DNA of 64,000 bases from an uncultured Desulfobacteraceae bacterium (GCA_964452575.1 CAYVMN010000001.1:3925-67924), one strand, 5' to 3'; counted from the stretch's first letter, positions 4,899 to 26,720 are shown. Notes: generated by a model from the letters alone, not told the origin. Translations and numbers: made by a program.

Positions 4899-5069
4899 AA
4901 ACTCGGACATCCTCAATGGATGTTTACGCTCTGTAAACTCCATAATTAAGATGAGTGCAGATTTTCATATGCTGATCAGGATCAAGTGAAGGAGCGTATC
5001 GTTTATGATACATCCAGGTTCACAAGGGCATCTCTCGATATTGGTTCGTAATTTAGGTGTGCTTCCTTT

Positions 5070-6737: not shown

Positions 6738-6745
6738 CATGTGGC

Positions 6746-6960
6746 TTAACCTGTACCCCTCTCTTTCAGACGGATGGCATCTTCTAGATCCCACAATTTC
6801 AAATTAATCGCCTCTATGTCGATAAATTCATGGGAATCAAACTTCATCCCAATGCCTTCCGTGGCGTCCTTAATGTGCTAGAGTTCTTTCAGAATATTGT
6901 TCAGTTTTCTTTATTTTGACTTCTTTGGCTTTAATAACAAGTATGATGGACTCATCCACC
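6746..6960 (-). pseudogene. decayed remnant of a small LPS-locus protein (DUF6165-like, from memory)
   Basis: One minus-strand frame reads VDESIILVIKAKEVKIKKTEQ.... A second frame reads KLNNILKEL*HIKDATEGIGMKFDSHEFIDIEAINLKLWDLEDAIRLKERGTG*. The N-x-KLWDxED-x-IR-x-KE tail and the IL-x-IK head resemble that family. Reading them as one protein needs a frameshift plus an in-frame TAG, and the C-terminus is truncated. Confidence 0.3.
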
Positions 6961-6967
6961 AATTAAC

Positions 6968-7843
6968 CTATTCACTTGGACCCCAGAGAATAACCGATGC
7001 ATAGCCATGGTCCCTGGCCTCCTCTACCAGGGCGGCCATCTCTTCCACGGCCCACATCTTGGTGAGCCAGCCGGCGCCGATGCCGAAAATGGTTCTTTTT
7101 TCATTAAGACGGCTTTCTTTCCACCAATGCCGGATTTTTGCGTCCGCCTTCGGATCCCTGGGGAATGGCACGGGCATATGGTGGGGCATGTCCAGTTCAA
7201 GGGCCCGGCCCAGGTATAGACTCCTGACGCTCACATGGCTCAGCTCATCAGGTGGGGACACCCGGCGATTGGTGAAAAGAGGGGCCAGTTCCCTCCCTTC
7301 AAGGGATGCGGGGCTAAACCCTACGCGCACAGGAATGCCGGCCAAGAAAGGGAGTATGGCACTCCGGGTCAGGCCCTGGGGATCGATAGAGATTCCATAG
7401 TGTTCAGAACGGATCCCTCGCACCAACCGCCCGATTCCAAGGGGATTTCTATCTGCTCCCCTCCACACGTGGACCCGATCCAGCTGGGAGAAGCCGTGAA
7501 GGAGGGGGGCAAAGGGTTCGTCCACAACCTACCCCATGTGGGCACCAGGCATCTTTTTGCGCAATGCAAAAAAGAGGGGAAGGGTCAGGGCAATGTCTCC
7601 CCTGCGCAATGAGAGCTTAGGCCTAAAGAAACTCATAAAACATCTGTTGCATAGCAGGATCTTTCTTTTTTCCCCACCCATGGATGCGCTAGGACAGAAT
7701 GCGCAGTGGGCATTGCAATGGTTGGTTGTCTCGATACGCACTACTCTTGGAAATTTTGAACGAGACACCTCCATAATCACGGCAGCGGTCCAAGCTAAAA
7801 AGCGAAAGCCACCCATTGGTTCGATCTTGCTGGCAGCGTCCAC
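6968..7843 (-). pseudogene. disrupted and truncated GT9 heptosyltransferase fused to a radical-SAM N-terminal fragment
   Basis: Two same-frame ORFs (7529..7843 and 6968..7525) are split by an in-frame TAG at 7529-7531. Read through the stop: ...GDIALTLPLFFALRKKMPGAHMG*VVDEPFAPLLHGFSQLDRV...IDPQGLTRSAILPFLAGIPVRVGF...IGAGWLTKMWAVEEMAALV...VILWGPSE. This is the N-terminal half of a GT9 enzyme and ends about 120 aa short of full length. The first ~40 codons instead encode RIETTNHCNAHCAFCP, a radical SAM CxxxCxxC start. Confidence 0.6.
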
Positions 7844-8077
7844 TCATATCCTTTAGGCGTTGCATAACAGGACTGGGGTCGCAATGGACCCCTCAAAACG
7901 CCCACTTTCCCGCTCAACGCCTTTTAATCCCCTGAATTGGAAAATGGAGATTGTATTGCAAATTGAGGTATGACCCGGTACAACATAGCCCTAAAGCGCC
8001 ATTTTTTTCGAAAGGAGTGTAGTCAACCACGGTCTGAGTGTCAAACGGAAAGCCTCGGTGATCAAATGGCTTAGGAG

Positions 8078-9850
8078 ATGCCCGAAAGAGCCATATCAGC
8101 CTTGGGAACCTATCACTCCATGGATATAATCGCTATGCTGAGACAACCCTACGTGGGAAAAACCTTACTGGCCATTTTCTCTCTGGGCCTAGTTGTTTTT
8201 GCACTCGCCACCCAATCAGGCCTTTGGGATCGGGATGAGTCAGTTTTTGCTCGCACCGCCGCTGAGATGCTCCAGAGCGGGGAATGGCTGTTGCCCACCT
8301 TCAACGGAAAGGTCTTCGCCCACAAGCCGCCCCTCTCACTCTGGGCCATGGCGGGCAGCATGGCCCTATTCGGTGTAAACGCCTTGGCGGTACGGTTGCC
8401 GGCTGTTTTTTCGCTGGCAGCCTCAGGATGGCTGGTATTCCTGATGGGCAGGAGGCTCTTTTCGCCCCGGGTGGGCTTCTGGGCAAGTGCCATGTTGATG
8501 AGCTCGGCCATGGCCATGTACCTCGGCAGCGCGGCCATGCTCGATGCTACGCTAATAACTTTTATCTGCCTGGCCATGTGGGCACACGTGGAAGGGATCC
8601 ATCATCCCAAGAGGTGGTGGGCCTATTGGCCGGTCTTGACCTTGGCAATAGGGCTTTCCGAATTGACGAAACACCCGGTGGGGATGGCAGTGTTGGCACC
8701 TGCCACACTTCTCAGCACCTGGATGTTGCGAAAGGAAAAACAGATCCCTAAAAGCTACTGGCTGGGCTTGATGGCGGCCTTTGCCGTGGGCTGTGGTCTG
8801 TATGTGGCCTGGTTTCTGCCTGTTCAGAAGCTTGCCCCTGGGTTTACCCATGAAAGCCATGGGCTCCACATCGTGGGCCGGTTTTTCACTGCCATGGAGG
8901 GACACGGGGCCAACAGCCTGCTAGGGTATCTGGCCCTCTTGCCTATCTATCTTCCCGTTTTGATCGCCGGCTTCGCCCCTTGGACGGCCTTTCTGCCCGC
9001 AGGGGTCTTGGCCTCGATTCATGGTCATGTGGGTGGGCGAAGCGCACAGGTCTTCATCTGGACCTGGGTTCTGCCTATTTTCATTTTCTTCAGCCTGGCA
9101 GCCACCAAGTTGCCTCACTACGTCTTGCCGGTGTTCCCTCCATTGGCCCTGTTGGCGGCGGGCACCTTTGAGGCCTGGCGGGTTGGAATGCTCGGTGAAA
9201 AGGATCGTGCCTGGTTGCGCTCCGGGGCGTGGTTTTTGGCCCCTGTGATATTTGTTGCCGGGCTGACGCTTGGAATGGCAGCCCCTTTGATGGGTCGTGG
9301 CTTGTGGCGCGTTGTAGGGGTGCTGCCAGGGGTGGTGGCTTTGGTCTATGGCTTGTTCGTGGTTCGGTTAATTCTTAAGGAACGGATGATCCAGGTGGCC
9401 CGGATATTCCTATTTGGAATGCCCCTCATCGTGCTGCTTGCGGCGTGTTTGAGTTTGCCTGCCATTGAGCCTTTGATCAAGGTCTCCCCGGTGCTGGCAG
9501 AGACCATTCAGGCGCATCGGTCCTCAAAGGAGCCAGTGGCCGCGTGCGGCTATGTCGAACCCAGTTTCATGTTCTACATGAATTTGCCCGCCCATCAACC
9601 CATCTCTGTAGTGGTGCCACAGCCCGAGGCATTGAGCGCGTGGCTCCACAAACCTGGAGGGGGGTGGCTGGTGGTGTACGATTCCCTCTGGCTAGACATG
9701 ATCGGCCGCTTTGGACCGGTTCAGCGTGGGGAAACCCTCTATAAGATACCAGTGCTCAATACTAATGACAACGCCCGGCGGGATATGGTGCGGGTGGTTC
9801 GGCGCCTCCCGCGTAACAACACCCCATCTGCCCAGGAGTCTTCCCCGTGA
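8078..9850 (+). CDS. ArnT/PMT-family (GT39/GT83) undecaprenyl-phosphate-sugar-dependent glycosyltransferase
   Basis: 590 aa and polytopic. WDRDESVFARTAAEMLQSGEWLLPTFNGKVFAHKPPLSLW matches the canonical first periplasmic loop of ArnT-like enzymes (DE...HKPPL). The start may be an internal Met (MDIIAML). Confidence 0.75.
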   Translation: MPERAISALGTYHSMDIIAMLRQPYVGKTLLAIFSLGLVVFALATQSGLWDRDESVFARTAAEMLQSGEWLLPTFNGKVFAHKPPLSLWAMAGSMALFGVNALAVRLPAVFSLAASGWLVFLMGRRLFSPRVGFWASAMLMSSAMAMYLGSAAMLDATLITFICLAMWAHVEGIHHPKRWWAYWPVLTLAIGLSELTKHPVGMAVLAPATLLSTWMLRKEKQIPKSYWLGLMAAFAVGCGLYVAWFLPVQKLAPGFTHESHGLHIVGRFFTAMEGHGANSLLGYLALLPIYLPVLIAGFAPWTAFLPAGVLASIHGHVGGRSAQVFIWTWVLPIFIFFSLAATKLPHYVLPVFPPLALLAAGTFEAWRVGMLGEKDRAWLRSGAWFLAPVIFVAGLTLGMAAPLMGRGLWRVVGVLPGVVALVYGLFVVRLILKERMIQVARIFLFGMPLIVLLAACLSLPAIEPLIKVSPVLAETIQAHRSSKEPVAACGYVEPSFMFYMNLPAHQPISVVVPQPEALSAWLHKPGGGWLVVYDSLWLDMIGRFGPVQRGETLYKIPVLNTNDNARRDMVRVVRRLPRNNTPSAQESSP

Positions 9851-10623
9851 GCTTTTTTTTCGTAGAAATCGTGGTGCCCTGTTACAATGAGGTGGAGCGT
9901 TTGGACGGCGACCGCTTTCTGGCTTGGTTGTCGAACCATCATCACTATCTTTTTCGGTTTGTGAATGATGGCAGCACCGATGGCACCCTATCCTGTCTGA
10001 AAGCACTGGCTGCAGCCAATCCAGCCCAGGTGCGGGTTCATGATTTGCGGTCCAATGCCGGCAAGGCCGAGGCCGTAAGGCGTGGGCTATTGGCGATTTT
10101 GGCGGCTGGTGCGGCCACGTATATGGGTTATTTTGATGCCGACCAATCGACTCCCCTGACGGAACTCCCGAGGCTGGTCAAGGCCCTGGAAAATAGGCCT
10201 CATTGCCGAATGGCGCTGGGGTCCAGGGTTCTGCTGATGGGACGTGATATCCAGCGAAAAGCAGGCCGTCACTACCTGGGACGTCTCTATGCTACCCTGG
10301 CCTCCCTTGTGCTGGACCTGCCGGTTTATGATACACAGTGCGGCGCCAAAGTGATGCGGGTTTGCCCCGACTGGTGCCAGTTGCTTGCCTCGCCCTTCTC
10401 GACCCGATGGGTCTTCGATGTAGAGTTGATTTCCCGTCTGGTGCGTTTTGACCGTAAGATGCGACCGGATGACAACCCCCGGACTTTGCTAGTGGAAGTT
10501 CCTGTTTATCGCTGGGTGGATATACGCGGCTCCAAGGTCACGGCCCTTGACGGGCTGGTCGCTCTTGCCGATCTGGCCCGCCTTTATTTTGTGCACCGTC
10601 GCCGATGGCGAGCCGGAGCATAG
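9847..10623 (+). CDS. GT2 polyprenyl-phosphate glycosyltransferase (ArnC/DPM1-like)
   Basis: 258 aa with the GT2 motifs VVPCYNE, NDGSTDGT and FDADQSTP. The GTG start overlaps the upstream TGA (GTGA at 9847-9850), which indicates translational coupling to the ArnT-like gene. Confidence 0.8.
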   Translation: MSFFFVEIVVPCYNEVERLDGDRFLAWLSNHHHYLFRFVNDGSTDGTLSCLKALAAANPAQVRVHDLRSNAGKAEAVRRGLLAILAAGAATYMGYFDADQSTPLTELPRLVKALENRPHCRMALGSRVLLMGRDIQRKAGRHYLGRLYATLASLVLDLPVYDTQCGAKVMRVCPDWCQLLASPFSTRWVFDVELISRLVRFDRKMRPDDNPRTLLVEVPVYRWVDIRGSKVTALDGLVALADLARLYFVHRRRWRAGA

Positions 10624-10686
10624 GCCCCTGAAATCATGCTCCCAAGGGATGAAACCAAGACCCCGAAAACGTGTTCAAGCCTCTTC

Positions 10687-12261
10687 TCACATCTTCTCCC
10701 GCAACCCGATTGCCAGAAATGTGGTCGAAAAGGCCACCAGGCTGTAGGCAACCCAAGACAATGGGCCCATCGGATCGGCCCATGTCAGCAGCGTGCAGAG
10801 GGCCATGACCAGGATCGGCATGAGGCATGCCTCGGCAGTTGCCCCCGCCAACCTGGCCGTATCCACCGGATGGACAGACCGCCAAACTTCCATGAGGATA
10901 AAGGCTGAACCGAGGGCCGCCATCATCCATGCTGCTTTCGGGAATCCGCCGGTACAAGCCGCGCCAATGCCGCAGATCGCGGCCCCTGCCCCATAGACCC
11001 CTCTGAGGGTCTCTTGAAGCCCATCTCCTATCGCCGCCTTCAGGAGCCCTGATCCGAGGATGACGAGTTTAAGCCCTACCCAGATTGCGACCGCGATGGT
11101 GAAGGCCCGGACCCCCCACAGATTTCGGGGAAAGGCAATCGCACAAAAGAAAATGATCTCCATCAGCAGGAGCGCGGAAAGTAAGGGTTGGCCCTTTGCC
11201 AGTCTAGGGGCAACCCTCCATCCGGGGTGTAGCTCATGGGCCCAGCGAAGCCATGAGGTCTGGACCAAGGGAATGAGTGCCAGAGACAAGATGGTCTGGA
11301 GGTTGCAGTTCCAATGCCGAAAGAAGAAGACCCGGAGGAGCACCGTTGCGGCGAAGGCGCATAGGGTCAAGACAAACCACAGGTCGAAAAGGCCTGGGTA
11401 ACGTTTGGGGACCTGGCTGTGGTTGTGCGTATTGGCCTGATTTGGGACTTGGCGCGGTGTAAGGGAGAGGGCGAAGGTGAGCAGGCAGGCTGCGGCCAGG
11501 GAGAGAGAACTGGTGACGATGTTCATCCATGGGCGGGCCAGAAAGGCATAGAGATACCCGTTCACTACCAGGCTCAATACCCCTACAACCAAAAAGGCCG
11601 GCATCCAACCAAGGATAACCGCTGCGAGGGGGCTTTGTTCTGCTATCGCGGCCTGCACCTTCGCTGTAAGGAGGATCAATGTTACCAGCAGAACAGATAG
11701 GATCACCGTCTGTTTCACAAGGAGAGGCCATCCGTCAGGAAGCCAGGCAGGGAGAAGGCTGAGCCACGGTCTTAGGGCATTGGAGCCCAGGACCAACAGA
11801 AGGAGAGAGAAAAGGATAAAGGTAGTGGGCGTTGTCCTGCCTGGCTTGCGCGACGGGAACAGCCGGACCAGGATAATCCCCGTTGCGAGCAGGGTCTCAA
11901 TGCCGGCTATTCGGAGGATGATCCCTGAGAGGCTCTCCCCAGCTCGGGGCCACCAGTAGGCAGGGAGCAAACCGGCCTCAATGCACCACACGGCCGCAAC
12001 TGAAGGCCGGCGGAGCAACTGTTTCACTGCCCGAACACTGGGACGCAGGCAAAGGGCGGAAACAATCCAACCAAGGGCCCCTGCCTGCAGAAGCGGAATG
12101 GAGGCATACTGCGCCACGACCTCGAGGCGCAGGTCGATTATCCGCCACACGAGCACAAAAAGAAGTCCGTGCGCAAGAATGTAAGAGGCGGTCAGCAAAA
12201 GCCAAAACCGCACCACAATATCCATGGGCAATCTTGTGAAAGGCAAATGGGCGAACGGCAA
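10687..12261 (-). CDS. polytopic membrane protein of unknown function
   Basis: 524 aa and almost entirely hydrophobic segments (more than 12). Lies 54 nt downstream of the IPTL-CTERM protein gene on the same strand. No motif recognised. Confidence 0.6.
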   Translation of the reverse strand: MPFAHLPFTRLPMDIVVRFWLLLTASYILAHGLLFVLVWRIIDLRLEVVAQYASIPLLQAGALGWIVSALCLRPSVRAVKQLLRRPSVAAVWCIEAGLLPAYWWPRAGESLSGIILRIAGIETLLATGIILVRLFPSRKPGRTTPTTFILFSLLLLVLGSNALRPWLSLLPAWLPDGWPLLVKQTVILSVLLVTLILLTAKVQAAIAEQSPLAAVILGWMPAFLVVGVLSLVVNGYLYAFLARPWMNIVTSSLSLAAACLLTFALSLTPRQVPNQANTHNHSQVPKRYPGLFDLWFVLTLCAFAATVLLRVFFFRHWNCNLQTILSLALIPLVQTSWLRWAHELHPGWRVAPRLAKGQPLLSALLLMEIIFFCAIAFPRNLWGVRAFTIAVAIWVGLKLVILGSGLLKAAIGDGLQETLRGVYGAGAAICGIGAACTGGFPKAAWMMAALGSAFILMEVWRSVHPVDTARLAGATAEACLMPILVMALCTLLTWADPMGPLSWVAYSLVAFSTTFLAIGLREKM

Positions 12262-12315
12262 ACGACCATAAGGCTAGGGGCAACTCATATGCCCTGAGAT
12301 CCCCCTTAGCCCCGT

Positions 12316-13188
12316 TTAGGCCGGTGTAGCGAAACCCCTTTTTCGCAAGTAGTGGAGACCCAGAATCAATAAGATCACGGTGAATGCCGCTAAACCCCAC
12401 TCGGTTAGGGTAGGAATCGGTGGCCCTGATGCCCCTGCAAGGGGGGTCCCCAGGGTCCCTATGAAATCCGTATCCGCGACCCCATCACCATTGATATCCG
12501 GGATCACCGTATTCTTGCCATCCACCTTTCCCATGGGGATCCAGATCTGGGTGTTCTTGTTGGCAGCTCCGCAGGCCTGCATGTCGGTGGCCACAGAGGC
12601 AAGGTTGGCCACACCGATATAGCCGGACTGCTCCACCAGTGAGAGCCTCACATTTACTGGCTGGATGTTTCCATTCACCATCTTTGAGCCCGTGAAGAGC
12701 ACCTGATCATAGTAGTCACTGGTAGGATCGGATTTCTCCAGGATGCCGACGCCGTTGTCGTTGGGCCACCCTAATCCCCCGGTATATGTAGCACCAATGG
12801 GGTGGCCAGCACCATCGAATAGATCGATGACCACGCTGCGGCCCCAATGCTTGAACTGGTCATATTTCCCTGCTGCGGCGTTCATCACAGCCTGAATCAT
12901 AAAGTCGTCATTGCCCCAATGGGCGCAGGGCCTCCATGGGCTCTGCACAAAGATACCAGTGGGATACATGCTGCTGTCCCACATCGGATAGGCCTGTTCC
13001 CCGGTACCAGGACCAGTGCCTTGGGTATCTACTCTCCCTGGCAGGGTGTTTGCGTTCATATTGGGCGGACCAAAGAAAGGGGGTTCAATCTGCTGCACCG
13101 CTGCCACCGCGGGAAAGGCCATGAAGCCAAGGATTACGGTAATCGCCCCTATGAGAGACCAGGATCTTGCCCTTTGAATCATGATCAA
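12316..13188 (-). CDS. secreted protein with IPTL-CTERM (IPTLxxWG) sorting signal
   Basis: 290 aa. N-terminal signal peptide (...LGFMAFPAVAAVQQ). C-terminus is PPIPTLTEWGLAAFTVILLILGLHYLRKRG, that is IPTLxxWG plus a TM helix plus a basic cluster. Contains an internal DINGDGVADTD Ca-binding-like loop. Confidence 0.8.
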   Translation of the reverse strand: MIMIQRARSWSLIGAITVILGFMAFPAVAAVQQIEPPFFGPPNMNANTLPGRVDTQGTGPGTGEQAYPMWDSSMYPTGIFVQSPWRPCAHWGNDDFMIQAVMNAAAGKYDQFKHWGRSVVIDLFDGAGHPIGATYTGGLGWPNDNGVGILEKSDPTSDYYDQVLFTGSKMVNGNIQPVNVRLSLVEQSGYIGVANLASVATDMQACGAANKNTQIWIPMGKVDGKNTVIPDINGDGVADTDFIGTLGTPLAGASGPPIPTLTEWGLAAFTVILLILGLHYLRKRGFATPA

Positions 13189-13382
13189 GACCTCCTTTCA
13201 CATCCGGATCATCCGGGCTTCGGTGTCATTTTATCATTGAGAAACACCAGCATCACTCAGACGGCGCGACTATGACAAAATAGAACTCCGCTGTCAAGAA
13301 AATTAGGTCCACCCAAACAATACCTTTTGGATTTTTTACAGCTGTGGTATCGTGAGCACCGGAGGCGCCTTGGCTGAGACCC

Positions 13383-14822
13383 ATGAACAGGCAAAACGCC
13401 ATGGATGGATCAATGATAAGAAAGATCGCCCTCATCGAACCCACCACCGATATTCCCAACATCTATTCCTTGACCATTTCACCGCGTCTGGGACTGCCTG
13501 CTATCGGTACCATCCTGAAGAGCAGGGGATACGAGGTTGATATTTTTGTCGAAGGGATCAAGGCCCCGGCCATCAAAGAGCTTCTTGAATACGATCTGAT
13601 CGGGGTCTCGGTTTTGTCCAATACCGCCAACCGAGGGTATTCGTATGCGAAGAGGCTCAAGAAATATGGAACCAAGATCGTTCTGGGAGGACCTCACGTA
13701 ACGTTTCTCCCGGAAGATGGCCTAAGACACGCCGATTTTGTCGTTCGTGGCGAAGGTGAGGAGACCCTGCCCGAGTTGATTGATGCCCTAAACAACCACA
13801 GGCCTCTCGATAGCGTTCAGGGTCTTTCCTATCGGGAAAACGGCCTTATCAATCACAACCCGGAGAGAGGGTTCAAATCCTACTATCTGGACGTGACTCC
13901 TGACCTCGGCCTGATCAAAGGTGTCAAGAGATTTTCTCGGGGGCTTTTGTCAAGATACCGATTCATACCGATGGTGTATACCTCAAGAGGATGTCCATTC
14001 CATTGCCGCTACTGCACCATTGCCGGATTTGCCGGGAGGAAGCCCCGTTATCGTTCCTTGAAAAGGTGTCTGGAAGACATCAGACACACCACCGCACTTA
14101 CGCGAAAAGACATCGGTATCGCTGATGATAATTTCACCATGGATATGCAGAGGACAAAGACCTTCCTGAGAAATTTGATTTCTCTGAGACTTCCCAGGCA
14201 ATATACCTTCATGACCCAGATCAAAGTCAATGCCTTTGGGGATGAGGAACTTTTGGCCCTGTTGCGGGATGCCAATTTCGAACTCCTTCATGTGGGCTAT
14301 GAATCCATCAGTGATCATACCCTGCGAGACTGGAAAAAAGAGCAGTCTATGGATGAGATGGTCCGCAGCGTAGAGCAGGCAAGAAAATACCATCTAAAAA
14401 TCAATGGGATGTTTGTGGTGGGCTCCGACCATGACACGGAAGAAACGGTTCAAGAGACAACCGATTTCGCCATTGAAAGCGGTTTGGCCGTCATGCAGAT
14501 GTGGATCCTGACCCCTCTTCCCGGTTCTGACATATTCCGCCAGACGTGGGTTGAAAACAGGATCTTCAACAGACAGTGGCGCCATTATGATTGCCAGCAT
14601 TCCGTGTTTTTTCCCCTTCGAATAAGACCCAGCCGGCTGCAAAGGGCGGTGAGGATGGCCAATAAACGATTTTATGACTTCAGGAGGATGTTTGTCCATG
14701 CGCCCGGAAACAGAATCACCTATGGGATGAATGCGCATCTGATGAATCGGTGGATGGGAAAATACGAAAGGACACTGAAAGGCATTGAGGAGGGCTTCTA
14801 TTCAGAGATCATCATTTGTTGA
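13383..14822 (+). CDS. B12-binding-domain radical SAM protein (class B)
   Basis: 479 aa. The N-terminal Rossmann-like cobalamin-domain pattern is present (IGVSVLS..., VLGGPHVTF, VVRGEGEE), followed by YTSRGCPFHCRYCTI (CxxxCxxC). Confidence 0.85.
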   Translation: MNRQNAMDGSMIRKIALIEPTTDIPNIYSLTISPRLGLPAIGTILKSRGYEVDIFVEGIKAPAIKELLEYDLIGVSVLSNTANRGYSYAKRLKKYGTKIVLGGPHVTFLPEDGLRHADFVVRGEGEETLPELIDALNNHRPLDSVQGLSYRENGLINHNPERGFKSYYLDVTPDLGLIKGVKRFSRGLLSRYRFIPMVYTSRGCPFHCRYCTIAGFAGRKPRYRSLKRCLEDIRHTTALTRKDIGIADDNFTMDMQRTKTFLRNLISLRLPRQYTFMTQIKVNAFGDEELLALLRDANFELLHVGYESISDHTLRDWKKEQSMDEMVRSVEQARKYHLKINGMFVVGSDHDTEETVQETTDFAIESGLAVMQMWILTPLPGSDIFRQTWVENRIFNRQWRHYDCQHSVFFPLRIRPSRLQRAVRMANKRFYDFRRMFVHAPGNRITYGMNAHLMNRWMGKYERTLKGIEEGFYSEIIIC

Positions 14823-14846
14823 GGGAAAAACTTTCCAGTTTGAATC

Positions 14847-16736
14847 ATGGGCACACCACGAGGGCCCTCGCCTAAAGAAATGATCATGAGCTATTTTCGC
14901 AATATCTGTCTGATAGAAGCACCCCATATTTCAAAGGCACCCCACGCACAAGGTTCATCGGACCTGACGCAGATCTGTTACCTGGCCTCGGCCCTTCAAG
15001 GGCAGGCAGAGACTGTTTCCATCCCTCTCGATTACTTCAGCCGGAACCCTTTGAAGGAGCTGGAGACACATCTCAAAGACCATTCTGTGGATCTTGTGGG
15101 CATATCCACAATGACCGGTGCCTTCAACAATGCGTTGAGGCTGGCATGCCTTGCCAAACGCTGCGGAAAATATGTGGTTATGGGTGGATACCACCCTTCT
15201 GCCCTGCCGGCCGAAGTCCTTGAATCCCCTTTTGTTGATGCCGCTGTGATCGGTGAAGGAGAAATGACTTTCAGGGACCTAGTAGCGAATGGGCCGAGCA
15301 GGGATGTAAAAGGCCTTGCCTATAAAGAGGCCGGCAAGATAATTGTCAACGACGCTCGGCCTCTGATCGACGATCTTGATTCCATCCCCCACCCTTTGCG
15401 GCGTTTGCGTCCCCAGCGATTTGGGGAGGACGGTGATGATTATTCCATAGACACTGTCTATACCTCCAGGGGCTGCCCCTGGCATTGCACCTTTTGCGCC
15501 AATCACACGGTCAACAAGAGATGGCGAGCACGCAGCCCCGAGAACGTGCTGGAGGAACTGACGGCCCTTCACCGACCGGGAAGAAAGAAGCTCATCAAGA
15601 TCTGGGATGCCAACCTTCTCACCGACGTCGAAAGGGTAGAGAAGATCTTTGATCTCATGGTCAAACAGCGGCTCAGCAATTTCCATATATGGACCGAAGC
15701 ACGGGTAGACGATATCATTCGGGCCGAATCCATCGTCCCCAGGCTTTATGAAGCAGGCCTGAGGGAGGTCTGCCTGGGCATTGAAAGCCCCAGTGGTGAA
15801 ATCCTTCAATTCATAAGAAAAGGCACCACCAAAGACATGTCCCGCAAGGCCGTCCAAATCCTGAGAAGATCCGGCATCAGGGTACAGGGCTATTTCATCA
15901 TAGGACATCATTCGGAGACGCAGGAGGACATAAAGAAATATCCCGAGTATGCGGTGTCCCTGGGACTCAACTATGCCGTCTTCATGCTCATGACTCCCTA
16001 CCCTGACACCCAGGTCTTTGAGGAATACAAAAGGGAGAACAGAATTCGTTCTTCTCATTGGGACCACTACAATAATTTTACCCCGGTGGTAGATACCAGG
16101 GAGATGGACCTGAAGACCCTCACGCGGATGTATGCTTACTGCTATGGCCGATTCCACAAAAAATACCCACCTCTTGCCCGGGAAGGGTTTGCAGGGATGG
16201 TGGCCTATTTGATCGGACGGCTGTATCTCCTCCAGATTGCAGCCCGCGTGAATACGGCCAACAACAGGGAAGATATCAAGGATTTCATCTTTGATGCCAC
16301 CCTAGTCTCCACAGGCAAGGACCTGGAGGGGACAGCGCCCAGGAGAGCACCTCTACTGGTGAAATGGTTTGGCTCCCTCACCATGCGGGTTCGACATTCG
16401 CCTGGCCGCAACGTGGACTTCACGGTCACACCGCTTGGCGGCACCCGACGGGTATCCATATGTGAGACCACAGACACCGGCCCGGTCAAAGGTCCGTTGC
16501 TTGATTTGGAAGAGATTGCAAGGCTCGGCCAAAGGGTTCCTCTGGAAAGGATGGCTGCACACATCCACAAGGGAGGTATCCTGGAGTTGTCTCCACGCCC
16601 AAGTATGAGGAACCTCCGGTTGTTGACCACGGACCCGATTCTCATCGCAGACGCCCTTGTCCTCATCGGTTTCGGCCTCAGGAAAATAGCGGAAGGCCTG
16701 GCGGCCATCTTCTCTCATCCCTTTCGATCCCACTGA
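14847..16736 (+). CDS. B12-binding-domain radical SAM protein (class B) with ~180-aa C-terminal extension
   Basis: 629 aa with VGISTMTG, VMGGYHPSA, VIGEGEMTF and then YTSRGCPWHCTFCAN. It is a paralogue-like neighbour of the previous gene. No motif was recognised in the C-terminal extension. Confidence 0.85.
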   Translation: MGTPRGPSPKEMIMSYFRNICLIEAPHISKAPHAQGSSDLTQICYLASALQGQAETVSIPLDYFSRNPLKELETHLKDHSVDLVGISTMTGAFNNALRLACLAKRCGKYVVMGGYHPSALPAEVLESPFVDAAVIGEGEMTFRDLVANGPSRDVKGLAYKEAGKIIVNDARPLIDDLDSIPHPLRRLRPQRFGEDGDDYSIDTVYTSRGCPWHCTFCANHTVNKRWRARSPENVLEELTALHRPGRKKLIKIWDANLLTDVERVEKIFDLMVKQRLSNFHIWTEARVDDIIRAESIVPRLYEAGLREVCLGIESPSGEILQFIRKGTTKDMSRKAVQILRRSGIRVQGYFIIGHHSETQEDIKKYPEYAVSLGLNYAVFMLMTPYPDTQVFEEYKRENRIRSSHWDHYNNFTPVVDTREMDLKTLTRMYAYCYGRFHKKYPPLAREGFAGMVAYLIGRLYLLQIAARVNTANNREDIKDFIFDATLVSTGKDLEGTAPRRAPLLVKWFGSLTMRVRHSPGRNVDFTVTPLGGTRRVSICETTDTGPVKGPLLDLEEIARLGQRVPLERMAAHIHKGGILELSPRPSMRNLRLLTTDPILIADALVLIGFGLRKIAEGLAAIFSHPFRSH

Positions 16737-16823
16737 GCACCGTCTGCGCGGCGCTATGAAATGGCCTGGCTTTGCTTCCGGTTCCCAGGAGGATGGCCGT
16801 GAATCAAATTAAAAGGGATGCCG

Positions 16824-18791
16824 TCAGCCCTGCACGGGGTCTCCGTACCGTTTGCAGAGGGAATCGAGCTTTGAACGGATTCCCTCTGACAATTCTCTGT
16901 TTGATTCTTGGAACCTGTTCTTTCTGTAGCCTGAAATACTCTCAAGATAATCCTCAAGCCTTTGCCGAAACCGCTTGGTCATGGGCAGGTCAAGCCATCG
17001 ATAGATGCGTTCGACCTCGCCCATGGGATCGACTTCAAGGTCCTCAAAGCGGATACGGGCAAGGCGCCCTTCCGGAAGTTTTGCTGCATCCCTTTCGAAT
17101 CGGTCTTCCATCTTCACGTAGTTGTCCGGAAACCTAGCCTCATAGGATCTGCCGGATTCGGGGTCTTGGAGCTGAAACAACAGAAATCCTTCCTGGGCCA
17201 TGTGCACATTGGATCGGTACACGTGATAAGGATGCCTGCGGATGTGTATAAATTTGGCGTTGGGATACATTTCTTGGAGTAGTCCTAGCCGCCCCGTATT
17301 TACTGGGTTCTTCAATAGGGGCCGCTTTCGGGAAAAAAGGGTCAACCTTTTGAGAAACCCTTCGTATTGCCGTTTCCAGGATTCTCGCTCGCGCTGCGTG
17401 AAACCCTCAGGATGAAGGTATCGGTCATAGCAATCTCCCTGCCTTGGAAAAACAATCCCCCAGTAAGGCGATAGGTGGGTCTGATTCATTAAAGCGAATT
17501 CTTCTTCACTTGGCGAAAACATGTGGACGGGCATAGGATCCATCGGTCTGCGGGGAGGGCTGAATACAAAAAGGGGTAATAGGAGCCAGCCCGTAAAGAG
17601 AGAACCGATGGGGTTCATCACCTGAATCAGCCTAGGAGTAATTAATCGATCATCAAGGGCAAGAAGGTTATGCAGGTGGGTGGTTCCGCTGCGGTGTACG
17701 CCGACAATGAATATGGGATCGGGCACTTCTTTGGTTCGCAGAAAAAGGGGAACTATCAGTCTTTCCGGCAACGTCAACAGGGTATTGAAAAGAGACATGG
17801 ACAAAACCCAAACAAGCCTCGGCACATAGACAACACCTACAAGAAACCGCGCGTGCCGCAGTCTGCCCAACCAGAGATCCATGGGGGCCAGGATGTTCGG
17901 TTGCGCAAAAGGGTAGACCCGCTTTAAATCCTTTGGTATCATCCCACTCGATTCCGACGCCCTGTGCTCACCCCTTTGCCTGAGCACCATGACATATATG
18001 GCAATAGCCAGCCCCAGAACGGCCCGCAGGGCAACTCCTTGCTCCGGATGCCCTTCGGGTATGGTCCAGCGGATCCATTCCGTTGCATATTTGCCGGTCA
18101 TGCGGATAACCGCGCTCTCGTCTGAGATGCGCAGGGCCATCATCCACCCGCTGAGGACCCCCGTGCCCCAGTAGATGTCTCCATGCACAATGCGCATCAT
18201 GCTTAACAAGGCCATGATCATGAAGTGGCCCGTTGCCATGCGCAGGGAGCCTGGCGACAACAGGGGTAAGGAACTTTGAACAGTCTGGCTCAATGAAAAG
18301 AGCAAACCTGTCACTGAGACTGCCACAACGCTGCCGTACCGATCCTTGAATAATCCCAAAACATAACCGCAAAATATGATCTGAATGACGGGAGAGGCAA
18401 CGAGGCCGTCCATGCCCCGAATGAACCCTTGTAGGAATAGCCCCCTATCTCCTCGCATGGATGTCAGATCGAGCAGGCACAGCACCAGAAAATAGGCGAA
18501 GAGCAATGCGAGGCCGATCAGAAAACCGAGGGACCACGACCGCAGCCATCGTCTTTGCGGGACAAAGCCATAGGCTGAAAGCGGTCTCTGTTCAAGGCCC
18601 ATCATCAGCGCCACCAGTCCCAAACCAAGAAAGGCAAACACGCCCCCGCGTCTTGGATCCCACCCGGCCTCATGGACCCCCAATAGCCTGGCTACGGCCA
18701 TGATGATCCCGATGCTGAGGGTCATGCCTGCTATCCAAATGCCAATCTTGGTGATGGGCGAGAGGTGGCGGAAGCTGTTTTTCAGTGTCAT
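16824..18791 (-). CDS. fusion protein: polytopic membrane domain (degenerate CPBP-like?) plus cytosolic sulfotransferase domain
   Basis: 655 aa. The first ~330 aa contain ~8 hydrophobic segments. The C-terminal ~300 aa contain PIFIVGVHRSGTTHLHNLL, the PAPS 5'-phosphosulfate-binding loop of the sulfotransferase family. Confidence 0.75.
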   Translation of the reverse strand: MTLKNSFRHLSPITKIGIWIAGMTLSIGIIMAVARLLGVHEAGWDPRRGGVFAFLGLGLVALMMGLEQRPLSAYGFVPQRRWLRSWSLGFLIGLALLFAYFLVLCLLDLTSMRGDRGLFLQGFIRGMDGLVASPVIQIIFCGYVLGLFKDRYGSVVAVSVTGLLFSLSQTVQSSLPLLSPGSLRMATGHFMIMALLSMMRIVHGDIYWGTGVLSGWMMALRISDESAVIRMTGKYATEWIRWTIPEGHPEQGVALRAVLGLAIAIYVMVLRQRGEHRASESSGMIPKDLKRVYPFAQPNILAPMDLWLGRLRHARFLVGVVYVPRLVWVLSMSLFNTLLTLPERLIVPLFLRTKEVPDPIFIVGVHRSGTTHLHNLLALDDRLITPRLIQVMNPIGSLFTGWLLLPLFVFSPPRRPMDPMPVHMFSPSEEEFALMNQTHLSPYWGIVFPRQGDCYDRYLHPEGFTQRERESWKRQYEGFLKRLTLFSRKRPLLKNPVNTGRLGLLQEMYPNAKFIHIRRHPYHVYRSNVHMAQEGFLLFQLQDPESGRSYEARFPDNYVKMEDRFERDAAKLPEGRLARIRFEDLEVDPMGEVERIYRWLDLPMTKRFRQRLEDYLESISGYRKNRFQESNRELSEGIRSKLDSLCKRYGDPVQG

Positions 18792-19199
18792 CTGATCAAA
18801 CTGGTAATCTTGTTTGGCACGATCCCCGGGGGGAGCAACGCCGGTGCATGGATGTTCATCTCAAAAACGCGTAACATTACATTGTTCCAGGTTCATTCTG
18901 AGAGAATATCTCTCAACAGGTCTTAGCGTGACGTTATTCTTGTGTTTCATGATCACGTCGTCTCTATGATCTGGGAGCCACCGTATGCTAACGTGTTGCC
19001 AGAACGAAAAAGCTCAAGGTGACAGATCGGGCTCCGGCTTGACAGCCCGGGACGGATCTCATAAGATGGTCTTCCATTGTCCCATGGACATGCCCTGGCC
19101 GGCCGAATAGGATGCTATCTTGTAGCAGGCGCCGTGCATTTTTTCAAGATCGCGACAGGTCATGTCATTCGGAACTCTCAACCCTTCCGGCATCCTAAC

Positions 19200-20441
19200 G
19201 TGAAAAGGATCCTTCTCTCTGGCTATTTGCTGGCGACATCACTGCTTTTCCCCCTGTGCCTGGTGGTTTTGGTCTTGCACACGCTAGGCCGACCCCGTGC
19301 ATTTTGGCCCCATCTTCAAAGACTCTCTCTGGTGATGCCCAAAAGGACGTCAAGACGCGGAAAGAGGGTATGGCTCCACGCCGTGAGCGTGGGAGAAATC
19401 ATTTCTTGTGCCCCTTTGATTCGGCGCCTTCAAGACAGGGGCTACTCTGTCTTTCTTTCCACGACCACTGAATCCGGCTTTGTGACCGCCCAAAGAAGAT
19501 ACGCAGGGGTCGAGCTCTTCTATTTTCCTTTTGATTTTTGGTTCATCTGCAACCGTTTCCTTAAAAGGATAGACCCGAATGTGGTGTTTTTGTGCGAAAT
19601 GGAGATATGGCCCGCCTTTGTCCATGAAGTATACAAAAGGGGAGTTCCCTTATATCTCATCAGCGGGCGGCTGGCAGATAAAGAGTTTCGCAGTTATCGG
19701 GCTTTTGGCTGGTTTTTCAGGCATGTTTTTTCCATGTTCTCCGGTCTGTTTATGCAGACCGAGACATATGCCCGGCGAGTAAAAGAGATCTGTCATCATA
19801 ACAACGTCAAGGTCCTGGGAAGTCTCAAGTTTGATGTGCCCATTGATGCCCATCAGAGCCTGATTGCCGACCTTCTGCCAGACGGCCTTGCCATCTGTGC
19901 GGTCTCAGTCCATCGGGGAGAAGAAGTCCCCATAATAGAGGCATTTCGAACTATTCGCGCCACATTTCCCCGCACAAGCCTGGTGATCGCCCCGCGGCAC
20001 TCCAAGCGCATGCGGGGAATCATTCGAACCTTGCGCCGGCACGATCTACCATACACCTTGCGGTCGGAGAACAGGAAATGCAGGAGCCCGGTTTTTCTTG
20101 TGGACACGGTTGGGGAATTAGCAGGGATCTATCCAAAATGCCATGTAATCATCATGGGCGGGAGTTTCTCCAGGAGAATCGGTGGCCATAATATCATCGA
20201 GCCCGCCTTATACAAAAAGTGCATTTTGTGCGGAAATCACATGGAGAACTTTCGGGATATCTATGAGATGTTCAAAAGCGAAGGCGCGCTGGTCCCTACA
20301 AACAGGGAGTCTTTGCGCCAAGACCTGCAAGATCTCTTACGAGATAAAGTGCGCATTGTGGCCACGGGAGAAAAGGCCTTTGGGCTGGTTCGTGGAAAAA
20401 GAGGCGCCTCCGGGAGAATCTTTGCGGCAGTCTTTGGTTAG
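19200..20441 (+). CDS. waaA: 3-deoxy-D-manno-octulosonic acid (Kdo) transferase, copy 1
   Basis: VWLHAVSVGEIISCAPLIRRL is the WaaA hallmark (IWIHAxSVGE), followed by EMEIWP. The ORF track starts at TTG 19077. I prefer GTG 19200 (VKRILLSGYLL..., an N-terminal TM helix as in WaaA). The start remains uncertain. Confidence 0.8.
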   Translation: MKRILLSGYLLATSLLFPLCLVVLVLHTLGRPRAFWPHLQRLSLVMPKRTSRRGKRVWLHAVSVGEIISCAPLIRRLQDRGYSVFLSTTTESGFVTAQRRYAGVELFYFPFDFWFICNRFLKRIDPNVVFLCEMEIWPAFVHEVYKRGVPLYLISGRLADKEFRSYRAFGWFFRHVFSMFSGLFMQTETYARRVKEICHHNNVKVLGSLKFDVPIDAHQSLIADLLPDGLAICAVSVHRGEEVPIIEAFRTIRATFPRTSLVIAPRHSKRMRGIIRTLRRHDLPYTLRSENRKCRSPVFLVDTVGELAGIYPKCHVIIMGGSFSRRIGGHNIIEPALYKKCILCGNHMENFRDIYEMFKSEGALVPTNRESLRQDLQDLLRDKVRIVATGEKAFGLVRGKRGASGRIFAAVFG

Positions 20442-20501
20442 ATCCATACCGAGAGCAGAGAAGCTGAATGGCAACATGGTCATCCGGCAAGAACTGAATC
20501 T

Positions 20502-21461
20502 TTGAAGAGATCTCTCTTGGGAAAGAAAAAAATCTCGTTTTTAAGACGGGTGGGTTTTGTCTTAGAGGCCTCAATTGTCATCCCACTGGGGAACCTGGCC
20601 TTGCTTCTACCCTGGCGTACAGGTAGGGCCATAGCATCAGTGGCAGGGTTGTTCCTTTTTTGCATCAGCGAAAAGGGAAAAAACCGTGCCCGCGAGAATC
20701 TGGATATCATTTATTGGGAACACCCTCTGTCAGAAAAGGAAAAGACCCAAATCATAAGAAGACTCTTTGTGAACATGGCCACAAGTGCGTTTGAATACCT
20801 CAAGATCCGCAACATAACCGCAGACAACTGCCTGGAATTTGTGCATATAGATGAGGCCCTTTACCGTGCAATTCGTGAAGATAGGGGCTTTATCGTTGTT
20901 AGCGCCCATGTGGGCAACTGGGAATATCTTGGGAGCATTGCCGCCAAACTGGGCAAGAACCTTGGCGCTGTCATTCACAGGCAGTTAAACCCTTATACAG
21001 ACAAATGGCTGAGGGAAATTCGTGAAAAGGATGGGAAGATAAGGTGTTTTTATGATGAGGTCTCTGCCATGCGCCCCATGGTTGCCCACCTGAGGCGGAA
21101 TGGGACCCTGGCCATTCTTGCGGATGAGCGGCACCTGAATAACCCGGTGTTTGTCCCGTTTTTTGGACGGCAGGCCGCAACTCCAGACGGGCCTGCAAGA
21201 TTACATCTGCTCTATGGTACGCCAATCGTATTCTGTTTTTCCATCAAGCAGGAGGATGGAAAATACCTGCTCACCTTTGACGGGCCCTATCATTTTGAAA
21301 AAAGCGGGGACCTGAAGAAAGACTGTGAGGTTATCATGACTTGCATGAACAAGAAATACGAAGAAGTGATCAGAAGACATCCGGATCAGTGGTTTTCTCT
21401 GCTGACGCCTCGATGGGAAAGGGGCAGACCGGAAAATCCTGAAAAGAAAGGCAGGAGATGA
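20502..21461 (+). CDS. lipid A late acyltransferase family protein (LpxL/HtrB-like lysophospholipid acyltransferase)
   Basis: 319 aa with an N-terminal TM helix. VVSAHVGNWEY matches the LpxL-family HxxxxE/D catalytic motif (H-x-G-N-W-E). Directly downstream of waaA. Confidence 0.8.
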   Translation: MKRSLLGKKKISFLRRVGFVLEASIVIPLGNLALLLPWRTGRAIASVAGLFLFCISEKGKNRARENLDIIYWEHPLSEKEKTQIIRRLFVNMATSAFEYLKIRNITADNCLEFVHIDEALYRAIREDRGFIVVSAHVGNWEYLGSIAAKLGKNLGAVIHRQLNPYTDKWLREIREKDGKIRCFYDEVSAMRPMVAHLRRNGTLAILADERHLNNPVFVPFFGRQAATPDGPARLHLLYGTPIVFCFSIKQEDGKYLLTFDGPYHFEKSGDLKKDCEVIMTCMNKKYEEVIRRHPDQWFSLLTPRWERGRPENPEKKGRR

Positions 21462-21561
21462 TTCCCTTGATCATTTTGATCTTTTTTTGTAGAAGGTCAG
21501 GCAGGCTACCGGCCTGGACATAGATTCCGGGGCCTTCGCGTTGGGAAAGAAGGAAATCTAG

Positions 21562-22818
21562 GTGAAAAAGAGACGTGTAGTTGCTACGGGATTGGGCGTG
21601 GTTGCGGCCAACGGGGTTGGCAAAGAGCGCTTCTGGGAAGCGAACACCCGCGGTGTATCTGGCGTCGGAAAAATAACCTGCTTTGACCCATCCCATTATG
21701 CATCGAGAATCGCAGCTGAAGTGAGAGGGTTCGATCCTCTGGAATATATGCCTGATAAAGTTGCCAAACGGGTGGACAGGTTCGTCCATTTCGGTCTGGC
21801 TGCCGCTAAGATGGCGATCGATGACAGTAGTTTGAATTTAGGGGCGGAGGATAGAGACAGAACAGGCGTGATCATTGGTTCCGGTCTGGGTGGCGTGCTC
21901 TTCCATGAAGAGCAGATCATGGCCGCATACGAAAAAGGAACCCACCGGTTTAACCCATTATGTGTTCCGCGGATCACCCCCAACGCCGTTGCCGCCCACA
22001 TAGCGATCCAGCACGGGCTGATGGGGCCCAATCTGGTGATTTCTACGGCCTGCGCCTCAGGGAACCATGCGATTGGTGAGGCCTTTCGAAAGATCCAGAA
22101 CGATGAAGCCGATATAGTCATTTCAGGCGGAGCAGAGGCACCCTTGACGGAGTTTACTTTCGGGGCCTACTGTGCATTGCGGGGTGTCCTATCCAAAAGA
22201 AATGATAACCCCGAGCAGGCCAGCCGTCCCTTTGACAAGGAGAGGGACGGCTTTGTCATGGGAGAAGGGGCCGCGGTCCTGATTCTGGAGGCCCTGGATC
22301 ATGCCCTCGAGAGGGGGGCCCATATCTACGCCGAAATCATCGGTTACGGATTGACCAGTGGTGCCTTTCATATGGCATTGCCACAGCCCGACGGGGAGGA
22401 CGCATCAAAGGCCATCTCCCTGGCGTTGCGAGATGCAGCGCTTGTGCCAGAAGATATCGATTACATCAATGCCCATGGAACCGCCACCGTGGCCAACGAT
22501 ATTGCGGAAACCAAGGCGATCAAGCGGGTTTTCGGCGATTTGGCCCGAAGCGTGCCCATCTCTTCTACAAAATCGATGATCGGGCATGCCATAGGGGCTG
22601 CGGGAGCCATAGAGGCAGTTGTCTCCTGCCTTGCCATCGAGCATCAAGTCATTCCACCGACTGTAAACCTGAGCCACCCTGACCCGGAATGCGATCTGTA
22701 CTATGTGCCCAACGAGGCCAGGGAGGCAGAGATTGATACTATCCTGTCCAATTCCTTTGGTTTCGGCAGTGTGAATGCATGTCTTGTTTTCCGGAAATTC
22801 TTTGAATCGCGAGGGTAA
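21562..22818 (+). CDS. fabF: beta-ketoacyl-ACP synthase II
   Basis: 418 aa with a GTG start. Canonical motifs present: RRVVATGLGVV, STACASGNHAIGEA (active-site Cys), HGTATVAND and GHAIGAAGA. Confidence 0.9.
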   Translation: MKKRRVVATGLGVVAANGVGKERFWEANTRGVSGVGKITCFDPSHYASRIAAEVRGFDPLEYMPDKVAKRVDRFVHFGLAAAKMAIDDSSLNLGAEDRDRTGVIIGSGLGGVLFHEEQIMAAYEKGTHRFNPLCVPRITPNAVAAHIAIQHGLMGPNLVISTACASGNHAIGEAFRKIQNDEADIVISGGAEAPLTEFTFGAYCALRGVLSKRNDNPEQASRPFDKERDGFVMGEGAAVLILEALDHALERGAHIYAEIIGYGLTSGAFHMALPQPDGEDASKAISLALRDAALVPEDIDYINAHGTATVANDIAETKAIKRVFGDLARSVPISSTKSMIGHAIGAAGAIEAVVSCLAIEHQVIPPTVNLSHPDPECDLYYVPNEAREAEIDTILSNSFGFGSVNACLVFRKFFESRG

Positions 22819-22824
22819 GGAACG

Positions 22825-23079
22825 ATGCCCATGGATATCGCAGAGATCGAGAAAAAGGTGCTTGAGGTCTTGGCTGACAAGGCCTCCATGGATCCGGATG
22901 AGATAACCCTTGAATCTTCCCTGGTGGATGATTTGGGCCTGGACTCGCTGGATGCGGTAGAACTCGTCTTTGAATTTGAAGAGGGCTACGGCATAGATAT
23001 TCCCGATGACCGAATAAAGGAGTTCAGGAACGGCCGGGACATCCTTAATTACCTTGCCGAAACGCTGAGTTCACGCTGA
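22825..23079 (+). CDS. acyl carrier protein
   Basis: 84 aa. DDLGLDSLDAVELV contains the DSL phosphopantetheine attachment site. Lies 6 nt downstream of fabF. Confidence 0.9.
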   Translation: MPMDIAEIEKKVLEVLADKASMDPDEITLESSLVDDLGLDSLDAVELVFEFEEGYGIDIPDDRIKEFRNGRDILNYLAETLSSR

Positions 23080-23170
23080 GGGCAGGCGTTCACGGCCCTA
23101 GCGTAACCGTTCTGGGTGTATCATCTCTGAACCCGCAAAGGGTTTCCGTCATGCTGTCCTGATACTGAGC

Positions 23171-24910: not shown

Positions 24911-24918
24911 TTCTTGGA

Positions 24919-26662: not shown

Positions 26663-26720
26663 AGGGTTTCCTTTTTGAATCTGGAGATCTCAAGAATATC
26701 CACAGCCTGATATATTCGCA

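Follow-up and report, generated by a model that had tools for sequence, protein, structure and literature searches.

Genes of the locus

We analyzed a 64,000-nucleotide stretch of DNA (the window below; one strand, read 5' to 3') from an uncultured Desulfobacteraceae bacterium (GCA_964452575.1, CAYVMN010000001.1:3925-67924; its genome is called G000 here), with attention to positions 13,383 to 18,791. Two adjacent genes for class B (B12-binding) radical S-adenosylmethionine (rSAM) enzymes converge there, across a gap of 87 bp, on a gene whose product joins a membrane domain of the CPBP (CAAX-protease-like) fold to a sulfotransferase domain that depends on 3'-phosphoadenosine 5'-phosphosulfate (PAPS); we call this gene and its product the fusion. 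A model's reading of the bare sequence (the original prediction) had described two B12-rSAM genes converging on a 655-amino-acid gene, and every feature was found in the place it had given. The five strings that it quoted, YTSRGCPFHCRYC, YTSRGCPWHCTFC, VGVHRSGTTHLHNLL, PVIQIIFCGY and LLFSLSQT, are all present in the translations. The features are as follows:

13383-14822, plus strand: rSAM-A, class B radical SAM gene (open reading frame (ORF) of 479 amino acids)
14847-16736, plus strand: rSAM-B, class B radical SAM gene (629 amino acids), 24 bp downstream of rSAM-A
16164-16733, plus strand: C-terminal domain of rSAM-B (residues 440-629)
16824-18791, minus strand: fusion gene (655 amino acids), predicted dead CPBP-fold membrane domain, juxtamembrane segment and Sulfotransfer_3 domain
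17967-18791, minus strand: CPBP-fold domain of the fusion (residues 1 to ~275, eight helices)
16827-17924, minus strand: juxtamembrane segment (residues ~290-350) and PAPS sulfotransferase domain (Pfam match at residues 359-605)

The database gene call for rSAM-A begins at M11 and gives a protein of 469 amino acids; this methionine, at 13413, is probably the true start. The flanking context is also as had been described, with ArnT-like, GT2 and GT9 genes on one side and a KdtA-LpxL-FabF-MsbA-fatty acid synthase (FAS)-like block on the other. A scan of 13000-19300 for promoters and terminators gave nothing better than shuffled sequence. The fusion gene has a GC content of 0.533 (0.614 at third codon positions, GC3), the same as its neighbors, and these two measures of composition give no sign of recent transfer.

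The C-terminal half of the fusion is a PAPS sulfotransferase

The C-terminal half had been predicted to be a PAPS-type sulfotransferase, and it matches Sulfotransfer_3 (PF13469) over residues 359-605 at 4.6e-33 (115.7 bits, well over the cut-off of 27). It contains a 5'-phosphosulfate loop (RSGTT) and a 3'-phosphate motif (R519...S527), both of which align with those of STF1. Residue counts here and below were taken over 120 fusion-family proteins; R367, G369, T370, K494, R519 and S527 are invariant in 120/120. The nearest solved sequences are 2zq5_A (1.6e-10), 2z6v_A (2.1e-6) and the CurM sulfotransferase (CurM ST, 4gbm; 1e-3). One published report names 2ZQ5 as M. tuberculosis STF1, gives its substrate as unknown, and finds that a hydroxy-fatty-acid-sulfonating enzyme from a gut bacterium has STF1 as its structural match (PMC13449962).

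Stand-alone sulfotransferase relatives from many phyla align with the fusion from residue ~280-307 onward, so the conserved juxtamembrane segment is part of the sulfotransferase lineage, to whose N-terminal side the CPBP domain was attached. The genome contains an adenosine 5'-phosphosulfate (APS) kinase gene, so PAPS can be made. One relative of the fusion from the JGI collection is automatically named after Stf3, the menaquinone sulfotransferase, which is a label only. In 12 of 16 locus-encoded planctomycete fusions the protein ends in Ala-Ala after a variable tail (RRAA, RKAA, QRAA), and the window's protein ends in PVQG; the terminal Ala-Ala may resemble an ssrA-type ClpXP degron.

The membrane half descends from CPBP proteases

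Profile searches with the fusion gave the Sulfotransfer_3 match above and a sub-threshold match to the Rce1-like Pfam family PF02517 (15.0 bits for the whole fusion and 16.3 for its N-terminal domain (N-domain) alone, against a cut-off of 22.4), so the homology of the membrane half to CPBP proteins was established by other routes. Many relatives of the fusion bear precomputed PF02517 matches. Of the candidates scored, at least 234 proteins belong to the family at E ≤ 1e-3; full-length relatives are 38-45% identical to the window's protein, and the closest are 69-71% identical. A profile built from 17 fusion N-domains (A2) and run against 1.84 billion representatives found 3510 proteins at E ≤ 1e-3, among them full-length stand-alone proteins of 280-310 amino acids, and these ~300-amino-acid proteins match the profile at E 1e-22 to 1e-12. 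An alignment of 25 sequences (A5: 19 stand-alone proteins, 2 reference CPBPs and 4 fusion N-domains) contains 23 members that match PF02517, and the stand-alone relatives in it retain the EExxFRG, FAxxH and GxHxG motifs. When A2 was compared by hhalign with three bona fide CPBPs, encoded in this genome or in related ones, the alignment had an E-value of 4.9e-4 with the motifs in register.

The AlphaFold2 (AF2) model of residues 1-292 (pLDDT 86.4, pTM 0.85) has the eight-helix CPBP membrane fold. In a Foldseek search this model matched SpdC (6u0o_A) with probability 1.00 and Rce1 (4cad) with 0.96, and all other chains scored 0.25 or less; a VIA search over 48,161 chains gave SpdC a Z of 16.1 (238 of 248 residues aligned, root-mean-square deviation 3.9) and Rce1 a Z of 13.9, with the next chain at 5.9. 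The CPBP topology that the original prediction had seen in the N-terminal half is borne out by these structural scores and by the profile link, and at the level of profiles and a predicted model they show that the membrane half of the fusion descends from CPBP proteases, whose active forms are ~300 amino acids long.

The protease motifs are lost throughout the family

The window's fusion lacks CPBP motif 1 (EExxxR), motif 2 and the motif-3 His: I136-Q137 stand in place of Glu-Glu, C141 in place of Arg, Q169 in place of the motif-2 His and L213 in place of the motif-3 His, while F165 of motif 2 (FxxxH) is retained. Alignment places PVIQIIFCGY and LLFSLSQT correctly as the two substituted motifs that had been proposed by eye; the third substitution, L213, had been missed. 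The counts for the family (n = 120) are as follows:

First Glu position: Q 88, E 7
Second Glu position: Q 100, E 6 (both Glu together in 0/120)
Arg position: S 87, R 5
Motif-2 His position: His in 9/120
Motif-3 His position: His in 0/120, L 109

The complete catalytic set is present in 0/120 family members, and the stand-alone ~300-amino-acid relatives have all three motifs. The loss of the motifs is therefore a family trait and not the decay of one gene; the view of this domain as a catalytically dead CPBP protease thus extends to the whole family. G142 and R200 are invariant in all 120 proteins, and the position of R200, which is Tyr in stand-alone CPBPs, has been fixed as Arg in 120/120 fusions. 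F140, F165, G211, L213 and G215 are near-invariant and cluster at the helices of the former active site. Judged from these residues, the CPBP-derived domain is kept as a non-catalytic module.

Distribution and linkage of the fusion gene

Among 41 genomes the fusion was present in 1 (G000; it was not found in its 40 relatives), and it was found in 2 of 301 sampled Planctomycetota, one being the center genome of that sample. The genome collection retained the best 80 of at least 581 confirmed fusion relatives, and 22 of these 80 are full-length forms; they carry Planctomycetota labels (Planctomycetales, Pirellulales, Phycisphaerales and others, including the cultured Aeoliella straminimaris at locus L023), apart from one in a metagenome-assembled genome (MAG) labeled Alcaligenaceae. 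No B12-rSAM gene lies within 10 kb in any of the 22 full-length loci (0/22, all ORFs searched with the window's proteins), and there is accordingly no conserved rSAM-sulfotransferase linkage among them. When the two nearest neighbors on each side were named by Pfam in 20 annotated fusion loci, the most that recurred were M14 peptidases (3), DUF4953 proteins (2) and hexapeptide transferases (2); no conserved neighbor of the fusion gene was found among these 20.

The junction between rSAM-B and the next gene on the same strand can be compared with that in a metagenome contig, L097, which carries rSAM-B at 81% identity and is the sole close relative in the metagenome scan. Two features of the window are needed for this comparison:

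16730-19117, no strand: 2.39-kb segment with the fusion gene and its flanks; a 55-bp spacer stands in its place in L097
19077-20441, plus strand: KdtA-like (Glycos_transf_N) gene, directly 3' of rSAM-B in L097

Positions 934-3127 of L097 align to window 14534-16729 (82%) and positions 3183-3380 to window 19118-19315 (72%); window 16730-19117 is replaced by 55 bp, and rSAM-B runs directly into the KdtA-like gene. At the other end of the contig (L097 1-1273), only a 3' remnant of rSAM-A (residues 385-475) is present, the sequence upstream of it is unrelated to the window, and rSAM-B is intact.

The fusion, rSAM-A and rSAM-B have three different taxonomic distributions. Because of these, the insertion/deletion (indel) difference in L097, the position of the fusion gene on the opposite strand and the 0/22 loci with a B12-rSAM, the idea that the rSAMs and the sulfotransferase tailor one product is not supported. 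The original prediction had proposed just such a unit, making a methylated and/or sulfated lipid; the missing fusion of L097 and the 22 full-length loci speak against it.

A different arrangement occurs with stand-alone sulfotransferases. Four Desulfobacca-type loci (L038, L044, L046 and L047) have one near a B12-rSAM gene, with a polyketide synthase (PKS) gene downstream in the three loci that extend far enough. In L044 (6626-20690) and L046 (6314-21019) the order is B12-rSAM (DUF4070), 378-amino-acid protein, APS kinase, Sulfotransfer_3, PKS, phosphopantetheinyl transferase and NAD-dependent reductase, and the PKS is an iterative enzyme of 2650 amino acids with the domains ER-KS-AT-KR-DH; L038 and L047 have the same rSAM and sulfotransferase arrangement. 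Judged from its genes, an operon of this type (Desulfobacca and Thermodesulfobacteriota MAGs) is a candidate pathway to a sulfated polyketide or lipid.

The two radical SAM enzymes

Both rSAM proteins have the class B architecture, over the Pfam cut-offs, and use of cobalamin is predicted from their domains. B12-binding (PF02310) is matched at 6.6e-16 by rSAM-A and 9.8e-16 by rSAM-B, and Radical_SAM (PF04055) at 1.4e-18 and 4.1e-22, respectively. In rSAM-A the B12-binding domain is at residues 33-132 and the radical SAM core at 199-363, with the cluster motif CPFHCRYC; in rSAM-B these are at 43-145 and 205-364, with CPWHCTFC. The pair had been called paralogue-like, which overstates their kinship, since the two proteins are just 30% identical and belong to different families. 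In NCBIfam the 25 best-scoring of the 32 (rSAM-A) or 35 (rSAM-B) models matched are all below their curated cut-offs; the best scores are 133.6 bits for rSAM-A (HpnJ, cut-off 577.6) and 167.9 bits for rSAM-B (BchE, cut-off 481.35). An analogy that had been drawn with hopanoid enzymes finds no sequence support, as neither protein reaches the HpnJ, HpnR or BchE cut-off. The closest solved chain for both is 9ccb_A (7.4e-15 for rSAM-A and 1.8e-18 for rSAM-B).

Relatives of rSAM-A are 79-80% identical on JGI contigs and 52-58% identical in Eremiobacterota MAGs. For rSAM-B the JGI contigs supply relatives of 76-82% identity; more distant full-length ones (42-55%) come from MAGs that bear the names Scalindua, Chlorobiaceae, "Deltaproteobacteria" and Planctomycetes. 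A relative of rSAM-A and a relative of rSAM-B were each seen on a single JGI contig of the same length (7,195 bp), so the two are probably adjacent there. No orthologue of rSAM-B was found among the 40 relatives of G000 (best 33% identity), in 400 other genomes of the window's phylum (1/401, the window's genome itself) or in a Planctomycetota sample (0/401), the top 3 candidates per genome being scored in the last two sets. In a 401-genome sample of the phylum of genome G432, by comparison, it is present at E ≤ 1e-60 in 72 genomes of 1.8-3.3 Mb, with 42-46% identity in 71 of the 72. To judge from the names attached to the rSAM-B relatives, such as Chlorobiaceae, the 72 presumably come from green sulfur bacteria. 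The family (~610 amino acids, with its own C-terminal domain) is sometimes found there in tandem pairs. In 14 loci of this kind rSAM-B lies beside Rrf2, ferredoxin, TPR, hybrid-cluster-protein and HAD-hydrolase genes, with no KdtA or sulfotransferase gene adjoining; in L126-L151 a hybrid-cluster-protein operon often precedes it and a HAD hydrolase gene often comes after it.

The ~190-amino-acid C-terminal domain of rSAM-B is family-specific and, in a model with pLDDT 89.5, is an alpha/beta domain whose last element is a long hydrophobic helix. It had no Pfam match at E ≤ 10, no VIA match above Z 4.9 and no usable ESM Atlas match. An SCP2-like lipid-binding domain was considered for it and rejected, as there was no such Pfam match and the SCP2 entries in Foldseek had probabilities of ~0.06-0.11. 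Literature listings on bchE paralogues contain nothing on the rSAM-B family.

Genomic setting

The KdtA-like gene at 19077-20441 shares ~33% identity with the KdtAs of relatives, and as much with the two other copies in the genome; the three paralogues of the genome, 19077-20441 and 43328-44674 in the window and one on G000:C129, are 32-33% identical to one another. In G001, a genome of the same genus that is 85% complete, nothing matches window 1-20000 at the DNA level, scraps match 20001-40000, and 44001-64000 is matched at 91-93% identity; by coordinate arithmetic the G001 contig ends at about window 41.5 kb. Window 1 to ~41500 is therefore either a variable 40-kb envelope-biosynthesis region, which would take in the two rSAM genes, the fusion gene and the lipid A/FAS-like block, or the counterpart of an assembly gap in G001.

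A GAF-adenylate/guanylate cyclase gene at 48688-49896 (minus strand) falls in a gap, at query positions 4699-5830, of the 91-93% match to G001, which is continuous elsewhere. The class I SAM methyltransferase gene at 4086-4898 (plus strand) has a GC of 0.373 and GC3 of 0.391, much lower than its neighbors (~0.48-0.59), which suggests that it was acquired separately and recently. The gene at 12316-13188 (minus strand) encodes a 290-amino-acid secreted protein with a signal peptide and an end that consists of PIPTLTEWG, a hydrophobic helix and RKRG; it carries an IPTL-CTERM sorting signal (Pfam E 3.9e-4) and is a likely client of the exosortase encoded at 36933-38378.

Proposed function of the fusion

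How might such a protein work? We propose that the fusion is a self-contained inner-membrane sulfotransferase with its PAPS-dependent domain in the cytoplasm. Judged from where the helices of the model begin and end, and from how Arg and Lys are spread along the sequence, the N-terminus, the loop at 68-81 and the basic stretch that follows helix 8 would lie in the cytoplasm; the former active-site positions (136-142, 165-169, 200 and 213) would then face the cytoplasmic leaflet and share a side with the PAPS enzyme. The SpdC preprint describes SpdC as acting non-catalytically to scaffold and orient the hydrolase SagB, a glucosaminidase, allows that it may bind a prenyl carrier through a membrane-facing cavity, and suggests that other CAAX-protease homologues may scaffold envelope enzymes. 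By analogy, the pseudo-protease of the fusion may anchor the sulfotransferase as SpdC does SagB, and its vestigial lipid-facing cavity may hold a membrane-embedded acceptor beneath the sulfotransferase active site. The original prediction had suggested a lipidic or envelope-bound acceptor, and a lipidic or membrane-bound one is reasonable, because a cytoplasmic PAPS enzyme is tethered to a fold whose solved members, according to the SpdC preprint, bind prenyl lipids; the tie of STF1 to a hydroxy-fatty-acid sulfotransferase is a further indication. The acceptor might be a polyprenyl-linked glycan, a lipid A precursor, a hydroxy-acyl lipid or a prenylquinone. Horizontal transfer would have brought the fusion gene in on its own, as one unit, and placed it in a variable envelope-biosynthesis region, with rSAM-B on one side and the KdtA-like gene on the other. 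The two class B rSAMs would be separate enzymes; they share no conserved module with the sulfotransferase, and the KdtA-like gene is the sole recurrent local partner of rSAM-B.

That the fusion is a horizontally mobile one-gene membrane sulfotransferase, with the dead CPBP domain as its anchor and acceptor holder and with the rSAMs independent of it, is the account we think somewhat probable. Several observations weigh against it. The window's own N-domain is below the PF02517 cut-off, the hhalign probability of the A2-CPBP match was just 32%, and the A2 profile had 0 matches at E ≤ 10 among the PDB sequences. SpdC and SagB carry out their chemistry outside the cell and the fusion necessarily does so in the cytoplasm, so the analogy is architectural only. 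Mean column identity is 45% in the N-domain and 60% in the sulfotransferase domain, which fits a plain anchor as well. The 2.39-kb segment is an insertion here or a deletion in L097, as a comparison of two sequences is unpolarized. The gene lies amid envelope-lipid genes, and a functional tie between sulfotransferases of this kind and B12-rSAMs exists elsewhere, in the Desulfobacca-type loci.

The dead CPBP domain could be a mere polytopic membrane anchor, perhaps an oligomerization module, with no part in the choice or presentation of the acceptor. The loss of every catalytic residue, the lower conservation of the N-domain and the fact that stand-alone sulfotransferase relatives manage with a short juxtamembrane segment alone would all fit, but an eight-helix fold kept intact at high model confidence, together with invariant G142 and R200 and near-invariant residues at the former active site, points to constraint beyond what a simple anchor needs, and we regard the plain anchor as rather unlikely. 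A joint prediction of the N-domain (A2) with the sulfotransferase domain (A6) scored 0.00 in two runs and speaks neither for nor against docking of the two. If the three genes instead acted on one envelope lipid made by the flanking genes, to give a C-methylated and sulfated lipid, their place between the ArnT-like/GT2/GT9 genes and the KdtA-LpxL-FabF-MsbA-FAS-like block would be explained, and the stand-alone sulfotransferase relatives in operons with B12-rSAM, APS kinase and PKS genes in L038, L044, L046 and L047 would be a precedent. We nevertheless judge it improbable: the fusion is absent at the rSAM-B/KdtA junction of L097, it is on the opposite strand with its own upstream region, none of its 22 full-length loci has a B12-rSAM, and rSAM-B occurs in 72/401 genomes of another phylum beside Hcp and HAD genes without a sulfotransferase or KdtA. 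Nor are the Desulfobacca-type rSAMs of the same sort, as they carry DUF4070 and match the window's rSAMs weakly (52-97 bits; 28-32% identity, two genomes).

CPBP enzymes such as Rce1 and the Mrt sorting proteases recognize C-terminal tails, and the acceptor might accordingly be a protein or peptide whose C-terminal membrane tail is bound by the CPBP-derived domain while a nearby residue is sulfated. A faint NCBIfam MrtS match (E 0.067), the IPTL-CTERM protein gene (12316-13188) and exosortase gene (36933-38378) of the window, and the peptidase genes next to the fusion in some of the 20 annotated planctomycete loci (M14 carboxypeptidase in 3, DUF4953 met-zincin in 2) could be read this way. The MrtS match is, however, 13.4 bits against a cut-off of 130, no conserved candidate substrate gene lies beside the fusion across the 20 loci, and the nearest solved relatives are STF-type enzymes and CurM ST, not protein tyrosine sulfotransferases; we hold a protein acceptor to be very improbable. 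A more specific form of the anchor-and-holder account would have a new class of pseudo-protease-guided sulfotransferases, in which a CPBP cavity that formerly bound prenylated substrates takes up, at the cytoplasmic leaflet, a lipid-linked envelope precursor by its polyprenyl or acyl tail, and the head group is sulfated before it is flipped, which would make the fusion a portable, horizontally spreading, one-gene route to sulfated lipopolysaccharide or glycan. This form is speculative and we would not expect it to be right in full.

No description of a CPBP/CAAX-protease-sulfotransferase fusion was found in the full-text literature, a body of text in which most subscription journals are uncovered, and literature on Planctomycetes sulfotransferases yielded polysaccharide and sulfatase topics only. 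Bacterial CPBP proteins are very common and mostly unexplained, and the fusion family is a natural experiment in which an enzyme of known chemistry has been welded to a catalytically dead CPBP that retains its fold and a new invariant Arg. Finding the acceptor would reveal what CPBP cavities bind in bacteria, and would bring to light, for Planctomycetota and for this anaerobe, a sulfated molecule of the membrane or envelope. The analysis also removes a tempting sulfotransferase-B12-rSAM link as unsupported, and flags the rSAM-B family as a conserved enzyme with a C-terminal domain of no known fold.

Comparison with known systems

The rSAM pair is ordinary in kind. Like HpnJ, HpnR, BchE, the MCR Gln C-methyltransferase and the TIGR04072 "ladderane-type" lipid rSAM, both proteins have B12-binding and radical SAM domains and a CxxxCxxC motif, and they score 72-168 bits against those five models, whose cut-offs are 360-650. 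The sulfotransferase half shares the RxGTT loop and the KNP and R...S motifs with the mycobacterial STF-type enzymes (STF1 2zq5, 2z6v) and CurM ST, which are soluble or PKS-embedded and lack a CPBP module, whereas the fusion has one. With the Rce1/CPBP glutamic proteases (PF02517; 4cad) the membrane half has fold, descent and motif register in common, but the EExxxR Glu and Arg and both His of those proteases are replaced in the window's fusion.

The best structural match of the N-domain, SpdC of Staphylococcus aureus (6u0o), has the eight-helix CPBP fold and acts non-catalytically with an envelope enzyme; the SpdC preprint presents it as the first bacterial member of the family to be both structurally solved and biochemically analyzed. 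In that system the CPBP protein and its partner are two polypeptides in complex, and the partner is a hydrolase that acts outside the membrane, whereas the CPBP-fold module of the fusion, at ~11% identity to SpdC, is covalently linked to a PAPS sulfotransferase that must work in the cytoplasm. We see the fusion as a putative SpdC-type pseudo-protease scaffold joined to a PAPS enzyme.

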